From an uncultured archaeon (lineage in GTDB: Archaea; Asgardarchaeota; Lokiarchaeia; Sigyniarchaeales; SOKP01): a DNA stretch of 19,689 bases. A program made the translations under genes and the position numbers. Of this stretch, positions 4,625 to 16,282 are shown piece after piece; the first letter of the stretch is position 1; every line of letters begins with the position of its first letter. The stretch covers positions 1 to 19,689 of the forward strand of contig CAZBPC010000065.1 in the NCBI GenBank assembly GCA_964493715.1. Direction: 5' to 3'. The notes beneath the pieces were generated by a model that searched no databases, was not told the DNA's origin, and was given only the letters and a program-made list of their open reading frames with translations.

Positions 4625-5422
4625 ATGACGAATAATGAAATGATTTCAGTTAAAAATTTGAAGAAATTCTTCGGTGAAGTTAAAGCTGTAAATGGTATTT
4701 CTTTTAACGTAAATAAAGGCGAAATTTTTGGATTGTTAGGACCTAATGGTGCAGGTAAAACTACAACCATTAAATTACTTTTAGGTCTTCTTGAATCGGA
4801 TGAAGGTGAATTAGAAGTGCTTGGGATGGATCCTGAAAGGGATGAGATTCAAATTAAAACCCATATTGGTTATGTATCTGAAGAACCACTTATATTTAAG
4901 TCTTTAACTCCTAAGGATTTATTCAATTTTGTAGCATCCATAAGAGGGATGGATCCTGAAGAAGCAACTGAGAGAGCTCAGCAATTTATGGAGATTTTAG
5001 GAGCTTCAGAATATTACAATCAACTTATCGCAACATTATCTCATGGAAACAAACAAAAAATACAGATCATTGCTGCAATATTACACGAACCGGATTTACT
5101 CATTTTAGATGAACCATTGTCAGGTCTAGATGCTAAATCCGTAAAAGTCATGAAAGAAATATTAGATTTACATTTAGAAAAAGGAGGAGCAGTTTTATTT
5201 TCCACGCATATAATGGAAATAGCTGAGGAGTTATGTGATAGAATCGGGATCATTAATAAAGGTAAAATTGTAGGGATCGGAACCATAGAACAATTAAACG
5301 AACAATCCCACAAAATTGGAGCTCGATTGGAAGATGTATTCTTAAGACTAACAGAAGAAGATGCATCAGTAGAAGAAATCGTGAAAAAACTACGAAAATC
5401 CTTCATTAATAAAAATGGATGA
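4625..5422 (+). CDS. ABC-2 type transporter ATP-binding protein (copy 1)
   Basis: Walker A GPNGAGKTT, signature LSHGNKQK, Walker B LILDEP and H-loop STH. Confidence 0.95.
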   Translation: MTNNEMISVKNLKKFFGEVKAVNGISFNVNKGEIFGLLGPNGAGKTTTIKLLLGLLESDEGELEVLGMDPERDEIQIKTHIGYVSEEPLIFKSLTPKDLFNFVASIRGMDPEEATERAQQFMEILGASEYYNQLIATLSHGNKQKIQIIAAILHEPDLLILDEPLSGLDAKSVKVMKEILDLHLEKGGAVLFSTHIMEIAEELCDRIGIINKGKIVGIGTIEQLNEQSHKIGARLEDVFLRLTEEDASVEEIVKKLRKSFINKNG

Positions 5423-5428
5423 GATTAA

Positions 5429-8044
5429 ATGACCGATCAAAAAATTAGTTTATATAAATTAGCGAAGTATACGAATCTTGAGATTGTAATGGAAGCTCAA
5501 GTACAATCTACTGGAGCAAATCAATCCAAATTGATGGAAAGATATAAGAAAAATAAAAAATCAATAAAAAATCAAGCTATTGCATTAAAAGTATCATATG
5601 GATTTCTATTAGCATTAATTACAATTGTACCAATATTTAACTATTTAAACCTTATCGAATTTTTTGGAGGATCTAGTCCTAATCCAAATGCAGGTCTCTT
5701 AGCTGGTAGCTTAATATTATCTGTTTTTTTTGCTATGCAAATAGCATATTTGTTAATTTTAGGAATGATGAATATTTCAGCTTTAATGAATGGTGAAGCA
5801 TTCCGTTGGTTCGAAACTTTACCACTTTCAAAAGACCGTTTAAATAAATTAGGATTTGTGACGGCTTTTCGGAATGTCGATATTGGTTTGATTCTTATAT
5901 CACTTGCATTTCCTATTATAATGGTAATAATTACTCAAAATTTTCTATTATTCTTTGTGAGTCTCTTAGTATCATTAATTAATGCGGTATTAGCATTTAG
6001 CATTTTAGTGATTATATCTCAAAAACTTAGTCGAATATTTCGAATCCAAGAAATAAATACTAAAAGAGCAACAACGATACGACTCATTACAATGCTAGGA
6101 TATTTTATTCTTATCTTTAGCATGTCAATTATTCTAAACGTAGCAATATCGTCAATAGGTACTTTTTACATTATGGCAAATTCAATTGATAATGCAGAAA
6201 CACTAAATATCATTTTATCTTTGATTCCTTTCCCATTATCTCCTAGTTATTTACTAACGATGTGTATAGAGCCTACTAGATTTTCGAACCTTCAATGGAT
6301 AATCACTTTAATGGGAATATTCCTCTATGCAACCTTAACTTGGTTCTTATATCGTCGAGCAGTTAAAGCAATGAGATCTGTCACCTCCTCATCTTCGATA
6401 GAAAAAAAAAGTGGTAGGAAAGTAGAGGAAAAAATTGAAGTGAAAATAGAAAAGAGATCACCTATAATGGCTTACATACGCAAAGACCTATCAATGGCAA
6501 CAAAGGATATTCAAATGCTAATGTTTATTTTTATGCCCATAGTATTACCCTTTATTATGGTTCTAACCATTACGGGAGTAACCTCATCTGAAGGGTTAGT
6601 AGCGATGGCTCAAGATTTCTTGATACTTTGGAGTATAATTGTAATTTATTTCCCAATTATTGCAATCATGCTAGTATCCGGTTTATTGAATGTAGAAGAT
6701 TCTGGAGCATCAATCCTTGCTTCTTTACCGTTAAATCCTCGAGATCAAATGAAAGCTAAGTTAATTTTAATGATTGGTATTCAATTGATCTCGTACTTCT
6801 TGCCGATCTTTTTATTATTAATGAATCCTGCTTTCCTGCCGTTTATTGGATTGTTTATTGCGTGGTATCCTATAGTACTTGTATTTTTAATGGTCATGTT
6901 CCAAATGAAAGTAAGGTTATTCGGAAAGTGTAAGTACAAATATGTTCTCGAAGAAGTAAACATAAATCATAAAGTTTGGAAGTGGGTATTTTTAATATCA
7001 ACCCAGTTCCTAATTTGCATTAGTTTTATTGTTATAGGTTCTATGTTACTTGTCTTATACAACATGGTTGTCATGACTATAACATTATTGATAATGAGCC
7101 TAGCTTCTCTCTCCATTTTATTTGTGACGCTCAAATTAATGTTTCCAAAAGAATTTGGAAAAAGAAAAATGATTGGAATCAGAGCAACTTTTAGAAAACA
7201 TCCACTGTTAGGAACTATTATACTACTGATCACCTATTTTTGCTTTCTCAATATTCCAGATTTAATGTTATCACCATTTATTCTGTTACTTAACATGTTG
7301 CCAATAATAGTTAGTAAATTAATTGGGATGCTTGTAGCACTCGGAATTTTGGGTTTATTGTGGTTTTATATTGTTCCTAAAGGTTTTAGACTTCCAAATG
7401 ATGATGAGAAATTTACAGATTTTGCTAAATCTATACGCCTTACTACTGGAGGACATTTAATTCGAAATATCCTAATTGGGATAGGAGCTTCAATTATATT
7501 TTTCCTGAGTGTGTATATCTTTGGGAATATCTATGGAACTCATAATTGGGATTTAGATGTTCTTTTTGGAGTTCCTTTTGCCCCACCATTATATGGAATT
7601 GGATGGCTCTTATTCATTTACATGCTAATTCCAGGAATATATGAAGAAGTATCATTCAGGGGGGTTATTACATCTCTCAATGAAAAAAAGTATTCTCAAA
7701 AAATAACATTAGTGATCGTTTCAGTTTTATTTGGCCTGTTTCACTTAACCAACATATTATCGGGGATGCCACCAATAGTTGTAATCCCTCAAGCATTTTA
7801 TACAGCTCTTTTAGGATTAGTTTTAGGATACATGGTAATCCGAACCAACAGTATAATCCCAGCAATTTTAACTCATTATTTAATAAACTCAGTAGGAAAG
7901 TTCTTTTACTTTATCAATTATACTGATGATCTATCACGTGTGTGGTTTTTCATTATAGGGATGGGAATTGTACCAGCAATTCTTAGTTTGCTATTTATAC
8001 GGTTTGTAACTCCTTTGAAAAAGCGAGAAATAAATATTATTTAA
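5429..8044 (+). CDS. ABC-2-type permease fused to a C-terminal CPBP (Abi/Rce1-like) intramembrane glutamic endopeptidase (copy 1)
   Basis: The N-terminal ~570 aa contain two permease-like repeats (FETLPLS; YIRKDL...LASLPL). The C-terminus has CPBP motifs EEVSFRG, FGLFH and HYLIN. The gene starts 6 nt after the ATPase stop. Confidence 0.82.
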   Translation: MTDQKISLYKLAKYTNLEIVMEAQVQSTGANQSKLMERYKKNKKSIKNQAIALKVSYGFLLALITIVPIFNYLNLIEFFGGSSPNPNAGLLAGSLILSVFFAMQIAYLLILGMMNISALMNGEAFRWFETLPLSKDRLNKLGFVTAFRNVDIGLILISLAFPIIMVIITQNFLLFFVSLLVSLINAVLAFSILVIISQKLSRIFRIQEINTKRATTIRLITMLGYFILIFSMSIILNVAISSIGTFYIMANSIDNAETLNIILSLIPFPLSPSYLLTMCIEPTRFSNLQWIITLMGIFLYATLTWFLYRRAVKAMRSVTSSSSIEKKSGRKVEEKIEVKIEKRSPIMAYIRKDLSMATKDIQMLMFIFMPIVLPFIMVLTITGVTSSEGLVAMAQDFLILWSIIVIYFPIIAIMLVSGLLNVEDSGASILASLPLNPRDQMKAKLILMIGIQLISYFLPIFLLLMNPAFLPFIGLFIAWYPIVLVFLMVMFQMKVRLFGKCKYKYVLEEVNINHKVWKWVFLISTQFLICISFIVIGSMLLVLYNMVVMTITLLIMSLASLSILFVTLKLMFPKEFGKRKMIGIRATFRKHPLLGTIILLITYFCFLNIPDLMLSPFILLLNMLPIIVSKLIGMLVALGILGLLWFYIVPKGFRLPNDDEKFTDFAKSIRLTTGGHLIRNILIGIGASIIFFLSVYIFGNIYGTHNWDLDVLFGVPFAPPLYGIGWLLFIYMLIPGIYEEVSFRGVITSLNEKKYSQKITLVIVSVLFGLFHLTNILSGMPPIVVIPQAFYTALLGLVLGYMVIRTNSIIPAILTHYLINSVGKFFYFINYTDDLSRVWFFIIGMGIVPAILSLLFIRFVTPLKKREINII

Positions 8045-8113: not shown

Positions 8114-8908
8114 TTGTTAGATAATTCCACGATTGAAGTAAACAGCCTTAAAAAGTACTTTGGAGATGTTAAAGCTGTAGATGGGATTAGTTTTGCTGTG
8201 AAAAAAGGGGAGGTCTTCGGACTTTTAGGCCCAAATGGTGCTGGTAAAACTACAACGATAAAACTATTGCTGGGTTTATTAGATCCAAATGAAGGAGAAA
8301 TGAAAGTATTAGGATTAAATCCTAATAAGGATGCTATTGAAATTAAAAGAAGAATTGGTTATGTGTCAGAAGATCCTTTAATTTTTAAATCTCTTACTCC
8401 AAAAGACTTGTTTAACCTAATTGCCTCAATTAGAGGGCTTGATCCAGAGTACGTGTTAGATCGTGCTCAAGTATACTTAGAAAGTGTAGGAGCACTAGAA
8501 TATTTTGAACAACTCATAGCCACATTATCTCATGGGAATAAACAAAAAATACAAGTGATTGCAGCTATTCTCCATGATCCTGAAATTCTCATTCTTGATG
8601 AGCCTCTTTCTGGTCTTGACGCAAAATCGGTAAAGGTTATTAAAGAAATTCTTGATCTACATACAGAAAGAGGTGGTTCGGTTTTATTTTCTACGCATAT
8701 AATGGAAATAGCTGAGGAAATATGTGATAGAATCGGGATCATTAATAAAGGTAAAATGGTAGGAATTGGAACAATTGAGGAGCTCAACACCCAATCAAAC
8801 AAAATTGGTGCTCGATTGGAAGATATCTTCTTAAAATTAACAGAGCAAGATAGTTCAATAGAAGAAATCGTGAAAAAATTACGAAAATCTTTTAAAGAAG
8901 GAATTTAG
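8114..8908 (+). CDS. ABC-2 type transporter ATP-binding protein (copy 2)
   Basis: TTG start. Same motifs as copy 1 (GPNGAGKTT, LSHGNKQK, LILDEP, STH) and colinear with it. Confidence 0.95.
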   Translation: MLDNSTIEVNSLKKYFGDVKAVDGISFAVKKGEVFGLLGPNGAGKTTTIKLLLGLLDPNEGEMKVLGLNPNKDAIEIKRRIGYVSEDPLIFKSLTPKDLFNLIASIRGLDPEYVLDRAQVYLESVGALEYFEQLIATLSHGNKQKIQVIAAILHDPEILILDEPLSGLDAKSVKVIKEILDLHTERGGSVLFSTHIMEIAEEICDRIGIINKGKMVGIGTIEELNTQSNKIGARLEDIFLKLTEQDSSIEEIVKKLRKSFKEGI

Positions 8909-8919
8909 GAGTATAGATA

Positions 8920-11532
8920 ATGGCACCAATTAAACATTTAAGTCTATATAAACTTGCGAAGTACACTAATTTAGAAATTGTTATGGAAGCTCAAGTTCAA
9001 TCATCGGGCGCAAATCAAGCGAAACTCATGGAAAAATATAAGAAGAATAGGAACAGTATCAAAAGTCAAGCTTTTGCAATGAGACTCGTTTATGGGGTAA
9101 TGTTGGCATTTTTAACAGTAATTCCTCTCTTTACAACTATTCGTTTAATAGAGTTTTTTAATAAACTTTTTGTTTCAACTGGTTCTATATTACTAACGGG
9201 TAGCCTTCTTTTCTCCACTTTCTTTGGAATACAGTTAATTTATCTGATGTTATTAGGAATGTTTAGTATTGGGGCGATGATGACTGGTGAAGCTTTTAAG
9301 TTCTTTGAAACTCTCCCGATTTCAAGAGAACAAAGAAGAAAACTCGGTTTTTTTACTGTATTACGAAACTTGGATGTTGGGTTAATAATAATGATGGTCG
9401 GCTTACCAACAATGATGATTATAATGACTCAAAACATTATTTTATCGATTATTAGCATTATAGTTTCAATAGGTGCAACTTTTCTAAGTTTTAGTGTACT
9501 AGTTCTTTTTGCATCTAAATTAAGTCAAATATTCAAGGTTGAAGAAGCAGGATCTAAAAAATCCACCATAATACGAATTATTACCATGCTGAGTTATCTA
9601 CTAATGGCTTTTTCATTGAGTTTTTTTCTGCAATGGGCTATAAATGCAGCTGATGATTTATTTATATTAGTTTCATCATTTGAAAATATAGATTTTTTGA
9701 ATTATATCATCTCAATTATACCATTCCCTTTTGCACCTAGTTATTTAATTACCATGCTTGTTGATCCTGCGCGATTTTTAATACTGCAGTGGATATTCAC
9801 TATTATTGGCAATATATTATTTGGTATTACAACATATTTACTATACAAGAAGGCAATTTCTTCAATGCGAATTGTAACCTCATCAGCAGCTATGGATAGC
9901 AAACAAATACTGAAAAAAAGAGCCTTCAAAAAAGTTACACAAACCGAAATAATCATTCATAAACCTATTATTGCATACTTCCGAAAAGATTTATCGACAG
10001 CTTCAAGAGATTTTCAAACACTCATGTTTGTGATAATGCCATTAATCCTCCCATTTGTATACGTATTTTCATTGTTAGTTAGCACCGGAGGAGATCTTTT
10101 TGTAGTGGGAATTGATATTCTCTGGATGATTTTAATATTTTATCAACCGATCATATCTCTGATGATTACTACTGGTTTTTTAAACTTGGAAGACTCCGGA
10201 GCGTCAATCTTGGCATCATTACCACTTCATCCTCGCGATCAAGCTAAAGCAAAACTCTTGTTACTGATCATCATTCAAACTTTATCATTTTTCTTACCTC
10301 TTTTAATGTATATTGGTTCCTCAAATTTCGTTCATTATTTATTCACATTCCTTGCTTGGTATCCAATCGATTTAATCTTCTTACTTAATGTGTTTTATTT
10401 TAAAATAAGGTTATTTGGACGGATGAAATATAAATTTGTTTTGGAAGAAATCAGAATAGAAAAAAAAATACTTAAGTGGATTGGAATAGGGATCCTCGAA
10501 TTTATAATTTGTTTTGGCTTTATTTTTATAGGGGTTATTCTACAATTAAATTTTGGTACCTCGTTGATGTTATTAATTTTATTATTGGTCGGTGTTCCGA
10601 TCTTAGGATTGTATGTTATTTCATTACAAAGAATATTTCCAAAAGAATTGGGAAAGAGAAAATTTATCAGTATAAGGGAAAATCTCAGAAAAAGACCAAT
10701 TTTAGGGACGATAATAATTTTATTATTATATTTCGGATTTCTGTTCTTACCCGATTTTATAGATATACTTTTCCTCCCTATTTATTTAATTCTTTCAGAC
10801 TTAGGTATTTTATTTATCAAATTTTTTATCGCTTTTGGATGTTTAACATTTTTATGGTTCTTGATAATACCGCGTAGTTTACATTTACCAAACGGAGATC
10901 AGAAATTCAAAGAGTATCTCAATCACATTAAATTAACAAGAGTAAAACCTATACTCAGAAACATTGTTGTAGGGATTGGATGCTCAGTGATATTTTTTGT
11001 TAGTACATTTTTAATAGCAAATTTGCTCGGAACTTTTACGTTTGATCTTAATCTTTTATTTGGAGTTCCAAGTCTTTTAGAAATTGGATGGTTTATTTTT
11101 ATTTTAATGCTTATTCCGGGTATTTGGGAAGAAGTAGCCTTTCGAGGAGTATTATTCCAACTAAATCTGAGAAAATACTCACGCAATGTTACACTGGTTC
11201 TCACTTCATTATTATTTGGTGCAGCTCATTTTCTCAATTTGATCACAGGTCAGCCTCTTAGTTCAACTATTTTGCAAGTGATATTTGCAGCATCATTAGG
11301 ATTTCTTTTTGGATACATGTACATTAAAACTAATAGTTTACTTCCTAGTATCATAACTCATTATTTAATTGACACAGTGGGAGCCTTATTTATGAATGTT
11401 GATTTTCCAGATTTCATAAGTTCAAGTATATTTTTTATCTTTGGAGTTGGATTAATACCAATGGTGTTTGGTCTACTATTTGTCAAATTGGTTATACCAA
11501 AATCGAAAAATGGAGAATTAAAAAGGAATTAA
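8920..11532 (+). CDS. ABC-2-type permease fused to a CPBP protease (copy 2)
   Basis: Colinear paralog of 5429-8044 with a shared SLYKLAKYTNLEIVMEAQVQS N-terminus. CPBP motifs EEVAFRG, FGAAH and HYLID. An AGGAG SD-like word lies just upstream. Confidence 0.82.
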   Translation: MAPIKHLSLYKLAKYTNLEIVMEAQVQSSGANQAKLMEKYKKNRNSIKSQAFAMRLVYGVMLAFLTVIPLFTTIRLIEFFNKLFVSTGSILLTGSLLFSTFFGIQLIYLMLLGMFSIGAMMTGEAFKFFETLPISREQRRKLGFFTVLRNLDVGLIIMMVGLPTMMIIMTQNIILSIISIIVSIGATFLSFSVLVLFASKLSQIFKVEEAGSKKSTIIRIITMLSYLLMAFSLSFFLQWAINAADDLFILVSSFENIDFLNYIISIIPFPFAPSYLITMLVDPARFLILQWIFTIIGNILFGITTYLLYKKAISSMRIVTSSAAMDSKQILKKRAFKKVTQTEIIIHKPIIAYFRKDLSTASRDFQTLMFVIMPLILPFVYVFSLLVSTGGDLFVVGIDILWMILIFYQPIISLMITTGFLNLEDSGASILASLPLHPRDQAKAKLLLLIIIQTLSFFLPLLMYIGSSNFVHYLFTFLAWYPIDLIFLLNVFYFKIRLFGRMKYKFVLEEIRIEKKILKWIGIGILEFIICFGFIFIGVILQLNFGTSLMLLILLLVGVPILGLYVISLQRIFPKELGKRKFISIRENLRKRPILGTIIILLLYFGFLFLPDFIDILFLPIYLILSDLGILFIKFFIAFGCLTFLWFLIIPRSLHLPNGDQKFKEYLNHIKLTRVKPILRNIVVGIGCSVIFFVSTFLIANLLGTFTFDLNLLFGVPSLLEIGWFIFILMLIPGIWEEVAFRGVLFQLNLRKYSRNVTLVLTSLLFGAAHFLNLITGQPLSSTILQVIFAASLGFLFGYMYIKTNSLLPSIITHYLIDTVGALFMNVDFPDFISSSIFFIFGVGLIPMVFGLLFVKLVIPKSKNGELKRN

Positions 11533-14108: not shown

Positions 14109-14281
14109 CTTAGATCCGAAAATATTATAATTATTATATATTTAGTTTGGCATTTTATAAATGTAGTTTTAATCAGATTCCTGAAATTATATACTAAAAA
14201 TAAAATAGGAATAATTTAAAATAGAAGTTCTTTTATGTGAAGAAACTAGAGAAAAAATTCTTAAAAATTAATGTTTTAATT

Positions 14282-15103
14282 ATGGATTCAAATAGAAATA
14301 TCGAAGTCACGTGTCCAGTTTGTAAGATTATTAAAAAAATTAGCATTCCTCAGAAAATATTTGACCAAAAAAGATTTGGTACAATAAAAGTTCAAGTTCC
14401 TCAAGGAGGTGTTTGCCTAGATCATCAATTCATCGTATTTATAGATATAAAGGGCATCATCAGAGGTTATGAAAAAATAGATCTAGTAATGAAAACTCCA
14501 ACTGAAACAAAAAAGTTTTCTCTCTATGGATTCATTAAAATGTTTGGATTATACGGGTTATTTTCCTTAATTCATGCTAAGATTTTTAATTATCTATCAT
14601 ACGTTATCAAAGATGAGGGTACAGAAGATCAATCAGAAATTATCAATATGCTTGGAGATAGTTTGCTTCCCGAAAAATATCGAGGGATGAACTTTATTAC
14701 ATTTATTGAAGATAGAGATTATAATAAAATAAAGAAAGACAAAAATATTCTCATAATAGATAGTCAAAAGAATATATTACAAACGCCTTGGAAAACAAAA
14801 TTGAAATTCGAAGAAGAAATCATTAAAAATGCACTTAAAATCTCAAATGAAGATGAACAACGTATTTCTATTCAAAATGAAATCGCTAAATTTATAAAAG
14901 AGGCTGAAATCTCGAAAATTATTGCCGAGAAAGAAGTGATCTATGAAACAGAGCTTATAGAAAAACTCTCAAGAGAATTAATGATCCCAAAAGTAAATTA
15001 TTATCGAATTTCACTAATTAAAGAGTTTATAGAAAGAAGAATTTCTGCAAAATTAGCCCAAAGGATTAAAAACAAAGTACATGAATTCCTCAAATCAATA
15101 TAG
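14282..15103 (+). CDS. Hypothetical protein with an N-terminal Zn-ribbon-like domain
   Basis: CPVC...VCLDHQF...IRGYEKID followed by a charged helical region. ATG 14282 is preferred over GTG 14237, whose extension is very AT-rich and promoter-like. Confidence 0.65.
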   Translation: MDSNRNIEVTCPVCKIIKKISIPQKIFDQKRFGTIKVQVPQGGVCLDHQFIVFIDIKGIIRGYEKIDLVMKTPTETKKFSLYGFIKMFGLYGLFSLIHAKIFNYLSYVIKDEGTEDQSEIINMLGDSLLPEKYRGMNFITFIEDRDYNKIKKDKNILIIDSQKNILQTPWKTKLKFEEEIIKNALKISNEDEQRISIQNEIAKFIKEAEISKIIAEKEVIYETELIEKLSRELMIPKVNYYRISLIKEFIERRISAKLAQRIKNKVHEFLKSI

Positions 15104-15205: not shown

Positions 15206-16053
15206 ATGCCCGATTGGGGAATGCAAAATCGTTTATCAAGAATTATTAAACCAAAATCTGGACATTGTGTAATGCTAGCGGTGGATCATGGTTATTTTGG
15301 GAATGTCCCGGGACAACTTAAATGTTTTGGAGATCTTAATCCTCTTTTTGAACATGCCGATGCATTGATGCTCACTCGAGGAATGTTAAGGAGTTGCGTT
15401 TCTCCCGATAGTGATATTCCCATAGTTTTAAGAGTATCAGCAGGAGCAAGCATGCTTAAAGAACTTTCGAACGAAGAAATAAATGTAACCATCGAAGATT
15501 GTATAAGATTAAATGTTTCTGCAATTACTTGCTCAATTTTCGTAGGGAGTGAGTTTGAAAAGCAGAGTTTATTGAATTTATCCAAACTTGTGAATTGGGG
15601 TCAAGAATATGGAATTCCATCTTTAGCAGTGACCGCCGTTGGTAGAGAAATGGTTCGAGATTATCGATATTTAGGAATGGCGAGTCGAATGGCAGCAGAA
15701 ATGGGTGCTTCTTTTGTTAAGACTTACTATTGTGAAGATTTTGAAAATGTTACGAGTATTTGCCCCGTTCCAATTGTCATAGCAGGCGGAAATATAGATT
15801 TGAAAGCCAAATTTATTCCGAAAAAGATTCCCGAAAGGGATGCCCTGCAGATGGCAAGGAATGCAATTGATAAGGGAGCTGTCGGTGTAGATTACGATTA
15901 TTTTTCATAATCGCAAGCAAAAACATGGGAAGAAATATCTTCCAATCAGACAGCCCAATTGGAATGATCAAAGCTGTTAGGGCAATCGTTCATGAGAATG
16001 CAACGGTTAATGACGCATTTGAGATATACCAGAATGGTCCAAAAGGTTTATAA
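15206..16053 (+). CDS. lsrF: LsrF-like 3-hydroxy-5-phosphonooxypentane-2,4-dione thiolase (DhnA-type class I aldolase fold). Predicted spliced CDS join(15206..15792,15823..15890,15923..16053), 261 aa
   Basis: LsrF-like motifs [38 protein letters not shown], catalytic KTYY and [10 protein letters not shown]. The missing C-terminus ([42 protein letters not shown]) lies in another frame at 15925-16053. Confidence 0.88.
15793..15822 (+). other. Putative BHB-type (HBh') mRNA intron 1, 30 nt, in frame
   Basis: Central helix CGGA(15787-90)/TCCG(15817-20), bulge AA^T, 9-bp intron stem ATAGATTTG/CAAATTTAT with one G-U, and 3' site AA^A. Ligation gives GGC GGA AAA AAG ATT CCC (GGKKIP). Confidence 0.8.
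15891..15922 (+). other. Putative relaxed BHB-type mRNA intron 2, 32 nt, frameshifting and containing a stop codon
   Basis: Central helix GTGT(15885-88)/GCAA(15917-20) with 3 of 4 pairs, bulge AG^A, intron stem TTaCGATTAT/ATAATCGcAA, and 3' site AA^A. Ligation gives GTA GAC ATG GGA AGA (VDMGR). Confidence 0.75.
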
Positions 16054-16057
16054 CAAA

Positions 16058-16068
16058 TTTTTTTTTTT
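16058..16068 (+). terminator. Oligo-T terminator candidate for lsrF
   Basis: T11 run 4 nt after TAA 16053, which supports this stop as the real gene end. Confidence 0.55.
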
Positions 16069-16282
16069 ATTCTTATTCTATTGATTCGTTTTACGTTTTC
16101 TTACTAGACCCTTTAAAAAACTACTCTTCATAAAAATAAAGGTTTTTTCATCTAAAAGTAATGAATATTGGGGAGAAGAAATTATAATTTCAAGCAAGAA
16201 TTACTAAAATATGTATATTCGTACTAGTGCTTTATTCACTGAAGCAACACCAGTCTTATTTCCAATACAAATAATAACAAAA

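Follow-up and report, generated by a model that had tools for sequence, protein, structure and literature searches.

A predicted tRNA-type mini-intron read as a ten-residue insertion in the LsrF-like aldolase gene of a Lokiarchaeon

Introduction

Contig CAZBPC010000065.1 of the Lokiarchaeon assembly GCA_964493715.1 (host genome G000) was analysed over 19,689 nucleotides (nt), a stretch referred to below as the window. On its forward strand, at positions 15206 to 16053, lies the gene of an LsrF-like class I aldolase of the DeoC/LacD family (Pfam PF01791; LsrF structure 3gkf). Within the frame of this gene, between two conserved Gly codons and two Lys codons, there are 30 nt (15793 to 15822) that can be read either as ten residues of protein or as an intron of the kind removed by the tRNA-splicing enzymes of archaea, and the question that the locus raises is which of the two they are. 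A preliminary description of the window had proposed an intron of the HBh' type, that is, a central helix (H), a bulge (B) and an intron hairpin (h'). The evidence given here makes it very probable that the 30 nt are a relaxed HBh' form of the archaeal bulge-helix-bulge (BHB) intron, placed in the coding sequence of the aldolase.

The unspliced open reading frame (ORF) of the aldolase, from 15206 to 15910 (234 aa), matches PF01791 with an E-value of 4.6e-12. Its closest solved structure is LsrF, which has the class I aldolase fold (3gkf, E 1.3e-70), and its nearest database relatives are proteins labelled as Promethearchaeota/Lokiarchaeota. The frame ends in a stop at 15908-15910, after GVDYDYFS, and a 42-aa ORF in a different frame (15925-16053) carries on with MGRNIFQ. 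This break, together with the continuation in the other frame, means that the gene is interrupted at least once, regardless of what the 30 nt are. With the predicted cuts the gene has three exons on the forward strand (15206-15792, 15823-15890 and 15923-16053), and the spliced gene is 783 nt long, or 261 codons; intron-free orthologs, such as P0003, also have 261 aa.

Structure of the predicted intron

All elements of the motif lie on the forward strand. The 5' strand of the central helix, CGGA (15787-15790), is exonic and falls within the two Gly codons; its partner UCCG (15817-15820) is intronic, forms four Watson-Crick pairs with it and covaries with it across species. The 5' bulge, AAU (15791-15793), is followed by the intron hairpin h' (15794-15816), a 9-bp stem with a 5-nt loop, which consists of the 5' arm AUAGAUUUG (15794-15802), the loop AAAGC (15803-15807) and the 3' arm CAAAUUUAU (15808-15816). 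Eight pairs of the stem are Watson-Crick and one is a G.U pair (G15797.U15813). The 3' bulge, AAA (15821-15823), has no closing outer helix beside it.

The 4-bp helix CGGA/UCCG, the 3-nt bulge and the 9-bp stem that the preliminary description had located at 15787-15823 were confirmed base by base, and again by ViennaRNA. For the segment 15780-15832, the HBh' fold is both the structure of minimum free energy and the centroid, at -10.3 kcal/mol, compared to -5.09 +/- 2.02 kcal/mol for shuffles of the same segment (z -2.58), 4 of 200 shuffles being equally stable. The fold recurs within the 111-nt fold of 15760-15870 (z -4.78), the interval in which it had been expected.

According to PMC2738675, archaeal pre-mRNA introns are cut between bulge residues 2 and 3. 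Applied to this motif, the rule predicts cuts at 15792/15793 and 15822/15823, by which 15793-15822 is taken out and the two Gly codons are joined to the two Lys codons (GG-KK). The translation agrees with the stop-free, in-frame insert of 10 aa between GG and KK that had been described for the unspliced frame. Since cuts after any of the positions 15789-15792 give the same protein, four registers are compatible with it.

The strict hBHBh' form of the motif requires an outer helix h adjacent to the 3' bulge, and here G15786 faces A15824; the same is true for two inserts found at this site in other species (L033 and L029, below). With no outer exon-exon helix at the 3' bulge, the motif is therefore relaxed HBh' and not strict hBHBh', in line with the type first assigned to it. 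As in the relaxed BHB forms defined in PMC5829648, the intact bulge stands between a 4-bp H and h', and the second predicted cut falls in an open bulge on the 3' side of H. A long-range pairing GCAGG/CCUGC, seen in the 111-nt fold, was considered as outer helix h and rejected; its codons are conserved also in intron-free genes. Group I and group II introns have ribozyme cores of hundreds of nucleotides and intein domains exceed 130 aa, and an insert of only 30 nt, or 10 codons, belongs to none of these classes.

The frequency of the motif was compared with that of random sequence in a whole-genome scan. Matches with a fully paired helix (4/4) and a stem of at least 9 bp numbered 127 per 1.5 Mb on both strands, versus 117 in a first-order Markov simulation, and this rate predicts about 1-2 of them in a window of 19,689 nt. 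A loose form of the motif gave 20,609 matches in the genome (5,545 per Mb versus 5,402 per Mb in the Markov simulation). What exceeds chance is the exact register of the motif with the insert. The exact geometry is found at one fixed position with a frequency of 59/7,344,940, or 8e-6, and of the 4 registers that suit the protein only one yields both H and the bulge; this one removes exactly the 30 nt that are missing from homologs.

Comparison with homologs

The 30 nt could also be ordinary coding sequence, that is, a lineage-specific loop of ten residues, possibly an old intron that was exonized, with a hairpin that is coincidental or belongs to the structure of the mRNA. Several features are in favour of this: the insert keeps the frame without a stop, it appears as protein in three database clusters and in the output of gene callers, and BHB-like motifs of equal quality occur at the frequency of random sequence. 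The homologs, which the preliminary description had expected to read GG-KK uninterrupted, do so in nearly all cases. Nothing stands between AGG and KK in 27 of the 30 aligned relatives, 117 of the best 120 protein clusters have no internal insert of four or more residues, and the alignment with LsrF (3gkf) has a gap of exactly those ten residues, with GG and KK adjoining. The remaining three clusters (P0001, 99% identical; P0005; P0045) carry exactly 10 residues at the GG/KK site. All three are also shortened at the site of a second interruption, described below as intron 2, so that splicing would be needed in any case. The insert peptides are unrelated or half alike across proteins, while their flanks are about 80% or more identical.

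At the DNA level, 2 of 80 species-representative loci have an insert at the GG/KK site, L033 with 30 nt and L029 with 36 nt. A search across the class (159 genomes) returned 109 near-full-length ortholog matches in 108 genomes; GG reads directly into KK in 105 of these, and the insert is found only in G000, G037 (the genome of L029) and G153 (the genome of L033). In this search, 20 rows stood out by stops or unusual spans and were inspected, and the spans of the others are too short to hold 30 nt extra. The three genomes represent three different genera, and most members of each are insert-free.

In another aldolase ortholog, L084 (the same as L076, G043:C144), TAA occurs twice in frame, at q116 and q118, and there is no insert; the gene may be a pseudogene, or the codons may reflect recoding or an error of sequencing.

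The inserts of L033 and L029 contain in-frame stops, TAA in the first and TAA, TGA and TAG in the second. Their genes are otherwise intact, and the proteins are 80-82% identical to that of the window. Both inserts fold like intron 1 of the window, where the helix H is CGGA/UCCG; its counterpart is CGGA/GCCG in L033, with one A.G mismatch, and AGGU/GCCU in L029. In two of the four H pairs both partners differ and the pairing is kept (C-G to A-U and A-U to U.G), and, over the three sequences, 91.7% of the cells are paired and one is broken. The true register is 82% paired, versus 15-46% in controls with slid partners; the alignment by MAFFT sets the L029 stem out of register, and the pairing counts for h' are therefore understated. 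The inserts of the window and of L033 share 24 of 30 nt, an identity that makes them homologous, and the L029 insert is unrelated in sequence.

A peptide that is kept while its base-pairing is lost, which the preliminary description had named as the observation contrary to an intron, was not seen: the inserts of L033 and L029 carry stops, keep the fold and show compensatory changes. As read from their sequences, these two same-site inserts decide for a putative intron and against a coding insertion. The latter is improbable also in view of the window itself, where all 13 pairs are intact, the register removes exactly the insert, and the insert follows immediately on a Gly-Gly pair whose backbone binds phosphate. 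In LsrF, the phosphate ligands given in PMC2728841 are the main chain of Gly226, Gly227 and Gly253, plus Arg254 and His58. Intron 1 lies directly 3' of the Gly-Gly codons that correspond to the pair Gly226/Gly227, which upholds the earlier placement of GG/KK in the phosphate-binding loop.

DNA for P0005 and P0045 was recovered neither from the species genomes nor from a metagenome scan queried with P0005 (best match 85%). The P0005 peptide back-translates into a stem like that of L033, a result that indicates compatibility only, and the P0045 peptide does not fit that register.

It may also be supposed that the intron is real and partly retained, giving an isoform with a longer loop by simple alternative splicing or regulation. 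The stop-free frame allows such a product, and an HBh' motif without outer helix might be cut less efficiently. On the other hand, no sign of selection for an open frame was seen, as two of the three DNA-level equivalents have stops, and a retained loop would disturb the phosphate-binding site. Partial retention is very improbable, and removal of the 30 nt as an intron is the reading followed here.

The second predicted intron and further sites in the aldolase gene

Intron 2 (15891-15922, forward strand) has 32 nt and begins 68 nt after intron 1. It contains TAA and breaks the frame, which means that the aldolase gene needs splicing whatever intron 1 is. The helix H is formed by GUGU (15885-15888) with GCAA (15917-15920), with 3 of 4 pairs, and the motif is completed by the bulges AGA (15889-15891) and AAA (15921-15923) and by h' (15892-15916), a hairpin of 9-10 bp. 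Removal of intron 2 joins GVD to MGRNIFQ. In relatives the helix reads GCGU/GCGC and other variants. Covariation is extensive at this site: 12 distinct sequences show pairing in 95.8% of the cells and two-sided changes in 7 of 14 pairs, a result that none of 500 shuffles matches. One of the H pairs (C-G, U-A, A-U) involves a Gly codon through its synonymous third position.

Across species, the aldolase gene has inserts of 30-36 nt at six sites, q10, q24, q26, q29, q195 (intron 1) and q219. Those at q10, q24, q26 and q29 are 30 nt long, each with an in-frame stop. Extra inserts occur in the loci L029, L034, L035, L038, L043, L089, L107, L134 and L137-L145, and L029 has three introns in its single aldolase gene. 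The q29 insert can be read as a full hBHBh' motif, in the register that would restore DHG-YFG. Intron 2 is located before M-G-R-N, and the q29 intron of the relatives after D-H-G.

Probable mosaic origin of the gene's 3' part

A tract of the forward strand (15755-16137) contains the two introns and is about 99% identical to the metagenome locus L103, with 4 mismatches in 383 nt. In the 250 nt upstream of it (15505-15754) the two sequences have 37 differences, or about 15%, and from 16138 on they are unalignable. With the intron-free relatives L170, L126, L002 and L001, exon 1 of the window shares 92-98% identity, and the 3' tract only 66-85%. In the DNA run X4, a unitig with the window type of exon 1 (depth 26.5) and another with the L103 type (16.1) both end at 15784, and a single unitig with a depth of 47.6 is found from 15755; where this unitig departs from the window, at 15951 and 16058, it agrees with L103. 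These sequences suggest that recombination between lineages recently transferred the 3' portion of the gene together with the two introns. An assembly chimera is less likely than recombination, because the junction recurs in 7 contigs (P0001) and because the depths of the X4 unitigs add up.

A decaying pseudogene, or an insert that is an artefact of assembly or a chimera, would be another explanation of the locus. Two disruptions occur within 130 nt, the contig is of metagenomic origin, and a chimera is conceivable in a gene that is a mosaic of two lineages. Against this, the same insert-bearing protein is found on the 7 contigs of P0001, the insert is present too in the independently assembled L103 and in X4 DNA unitigs of another sample, and the depth of the shared 3' unitig is close to the sum of those of the exon-1 variants. 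Apart from the interruptions the exons show no defect, and their identity to intact orthologs is 89-95%; each of the two disruptions has exactly the form of a BHB intron, and the essential genes leuS, nadE and rtcB are interrupted likewise. We hold this explanation to be extremely improbable.

No homing-endonuclease Pfam family was found among the ORFs of the window.

Splicing enzymes and proposed mechanism

The genome G000 has two EndA paralogs. The first, EndA alpha (L081:1150-1773), has as its best match in the PDB a chain of the Aeropyrum EndA (3p1z_B, E 1e-36), with which the Tyr/His/Lys residues are conserved; its alignment has no gap in the Crenarchaea-specific loop, where counterparts of K44 and R46 are retained. 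The second (L082:1210-1827) has Ser in place of a His of the M. jannaschii enzyme (1a79) that we take to be the catalytic one, and it may be read from its sequence as a non-catalytic, structural beta subunit. The Crenarchaea loop is reported to give broad specificity, and K44 to be needed to cut relaxed motifs (PMC3241643); (alpha-beta)2 EndA enzymes with this loop are described for Asgard archaea in PMC5829648. The host thus encodes a predicted two-subunit endonuclease suited to relaxed motifs. The RNA ligase is represented by one rtcB locus, which a predicted 29-nt BHB intron interrupts at position 47/48 of the profile.

From these elements we infer how cleavage and ligation would proceed. 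The pre-mRNA would fold so that the two exonic Gly codons pair with the last four intron-internal bases, leaving a 3-nt bulge at each splice site. An EndA alpha-beta enzyme with the Crenarchaea-type specificity loop would cut after the second nucleotide of each bulge, and RtcB would join the exons, with GG-KK restored in the phosphate-binding loop that follows strand beta-7. Intron 2 would be removed as well; otherwise the protein would end before the GRN phosphate-binding loop. That the length of intron 1 is a multiple of three, without a stop, would be an accident of sequence and not a sign of translation.

Other predicted mini-introns in the genome

For other genes of G000, frame-restoring introns were predicted with the cut rule and the separate exon halves were then searched against Pfam. 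Six further genes have predicted introns of 29-31 nt across which the Pfam coordinates are contiguous. They are rtcB (C2:12136-12164, reverse strand, locus L183; 29 nt; Pfam 1-46 and 48-426), nadE (C39:8748-8777; Pfam 3-143 and 144-242), leuS (C44:26027-26056; tRNA-synt_1g 4-46 and 48-135), two thiolase genes (C28:23007-23036, Pfam 14-49 and 52-143; C120:4198-4228, Pfam 1-48 and 51-143) and an acyl-CoA synthetase gene (C19:23103-23132; AMP-binding 9-208 and 223-312). The introns of the two thiolase genes are at nearly the same codon, after HDCFT. In the genus, where 40 genomes were searched for rtcB, the gene is uninterrupted in 34, and only G000 and G120 are split at that place. Together with the two of the aldolase gene, the protein genes of G000 would hold at least eight mini-introns. 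Two other candidates are unverified: for C145:299-328, Thiolase_N matches weakly and on one side, and for C28:34412-34441 exon 2 has no family.

As judged by the junction peptides, the introns of the other genes are placed within well-known conserved motifs, which presumably are catalytic. ARAGORN detected only 27 tRNA genes in G000; introns were seen in 12, and several of these introns measure 29-30 nt. The genome is rated 100% complete, and multiple or non-canonical introns probably conceal many of its tRNA genes.

In a frame-rescue test, loose motifs gave no excess at the true length (49 versus 42-51), with a similar outcome in a second run of the test, and the strictest motif class gave 5 sites at the true length versus 0, 1, 0 and 1 at wrong lengths. 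As for hidden in-frame introns, the 61 strict matches that lie in frame inside open frames in the genome scan resembled ordinary coding sequence. The ratio of in-frame to out-of-frame strict matches was 25:52, as chance predicts, which means that the motif cannot find hidden in-frame introns without a comparison of homologs. The idea of the preliminary description that in-frame introns in this lineage are misread as protein insertions holds for the aldolase, where P0001, P0005 and P0045 have the 10-aa insert as protein; beyond it, the motif scan singled out no other case.

RNA data and evidence against an intron

Several points weigh against an intron at 15793-15822. At this site there are only three independent DNA sequences, of which L033 has the A.G mismatch in H and L029 is misaligned by MAFFT. 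The insert is stop-free in the window and in P0005 and P0045, and some unspliced transcripts may be translated. The motif alone is as common as in random sequence. Its 3' bulge is without a closing outer helix, and efficient cleavage is assumed from the type of enzyme. The sole rtcB gene is itself interrupted, so that production of new ligase depends on pre-existing ligase. Finally, 4-6% of the sampled words were present in three RNA runs, and the sequence assembled from these is 90-95% alike, that is, it comes from relatives.

Two RNA contigs lack sequence at these positions. The one from X24, which is unassignable to an intron-bearing genome, skips 138 nt with 76 nt between, and so has 62 nt fewer, the size of both inserts; the one from X22 runs GG straight into KK. 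Samples of that kind also contain the DNA of intron-free relatives (X4 record 15), and because of this the two contigs are no proof of splicing.

Neighbouring genes

Immediately upstream of the aldolase gene there is an ORF of 288 aa (14237-15103), which has no Pfam family and is conserved beside the gene in L103 (75-92% nt identity). Further upstream, the window contains a tandem-duplicated gene pair (4625-8044 and 8114-11532). Each copy consists of an ABC-type ATPase (265 and 264 aa) and then a membrane protein, about 870 aa long, whose C-terminal domain is of the Rce1-like CAAX-protease type.

Relation to known introns

The intron in the cbf5 pre-mRNA of Crenarchaeota, said to have been the subject of earlier studies by Watanabe (2002) and Yoshinari (2006), resembles the aldolase introns in many aspects. 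As described in PMC2738675 (Yokobori 2009), it is short, lies within protein-coding sequence, has a mostly relaxed BHB motif with cuts between the second and third bulge residues, and is patchily distributed, with gains and losses. According to the same report it is cleaved by a hetero-oligomeric EndA, and the aldolase genome encodes two EndA subunits; it splits the codon of a catalytic Asp, and the aldolase introns lie beside phosphate-binding residues. Its splicing was demonstrated by cDNA (PMC2738675), whereas the aldolase intron is predicted from sequence. Unlike cbf5, the host gene here is a metabolic aldolase in Lokiarchaeia, with two introns in one gene and six sites across species, all of a uniform 30-36 nt, and intron 1 is in frame, stop-free and annotated as protein.

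Non-canonical HBh' introns of tRNA were reportedly treated by Marck and Grosjean in 2003. Those of Thermoproteota and Asgard archaea share the motif, the cut rule and the enzymes with the aldolase intron, exon sequence supplying part of the motif in both, and Asgard genomes are described as rich in non-canonical tRNA introns (PMC5829648; bioRxiv 10.64898/2026.10.13.758758). Unlike these, the aldolase intron has an mRNA as host, the exon half of its helix also encodes a conserved Gly-Gly, and mis-splicing would alter a protein and not a tRNA.

A BHB intron is also described in the 5' untranslated region of HVO_1309 in Haloferax volcanii (PMC7714728), and is likewise an EndA substrate in an mRNA. 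Unlike the aldolase intron, it is located in the untranslated leader, and the EndA of its host is homodimeric; in the statement of PMC7714728 on the matter, cbf5 is the only further BHB intron known. In searches of the full-text literature, into which neither supplementary files nor subscription journals entered, BHB introns were nowhere described for protein-coding sequences of Asgard archaea.

The splicing of XBP1 and HAC1 mRNA in eukaryotes offers a more distant likeness, as a small, non-spliceosomal intron of coding sequence is released by cleavage at stem-loops and the exons are joined by an RtcB-type or tRNA ligase. It differs in that the cutter is IRE1 and in that the intron is regulatory, with a frame shift triggered by stress, and no relation by descent is claimed here.

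Significance

Taking the aldolase sites together with the other genes, we put forward, at even confidence for and against, that Lokiarchaeia have a population of uniform tRNA-type mini-introns of about 30 nt in protein genes, with at least eight in this genome and six sites in the aldolase. Such introns would prefer codons of catalytic or ligand-binding residues and turn over fast. They would spread between lineages as DNA by homologous recombination, carrying along some hundreds of bases of the adjoining exon, and the in-frame, stop-free fraction of them would be annotated as protein. The patchy distribution, the six sites and the shared tract give a testable picture of the gain and loss of small introns in the prokaryotic lineage nearest to eukaryotes.

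For annotation, the aldolase shows that gene callers and protein databases can absorb introns of this kind as loop insertions, as in the three clusters found here. The added interest of intron 1 is that it is invisible to annotation and reveals the intron load and turnover of the lineage. For the biology of the organism, the predicted introns in leuS, nadE and rtcB would mean that an Asgard archaeon must splice essential mRNAs with its tRNA-splicing enzymes. If the proposed population of mini-introns is real, the closest archaeal relatives of eukaryotes would have mosaic protein genes that are independent of a spliceosome, with introns gained by gene conversion.

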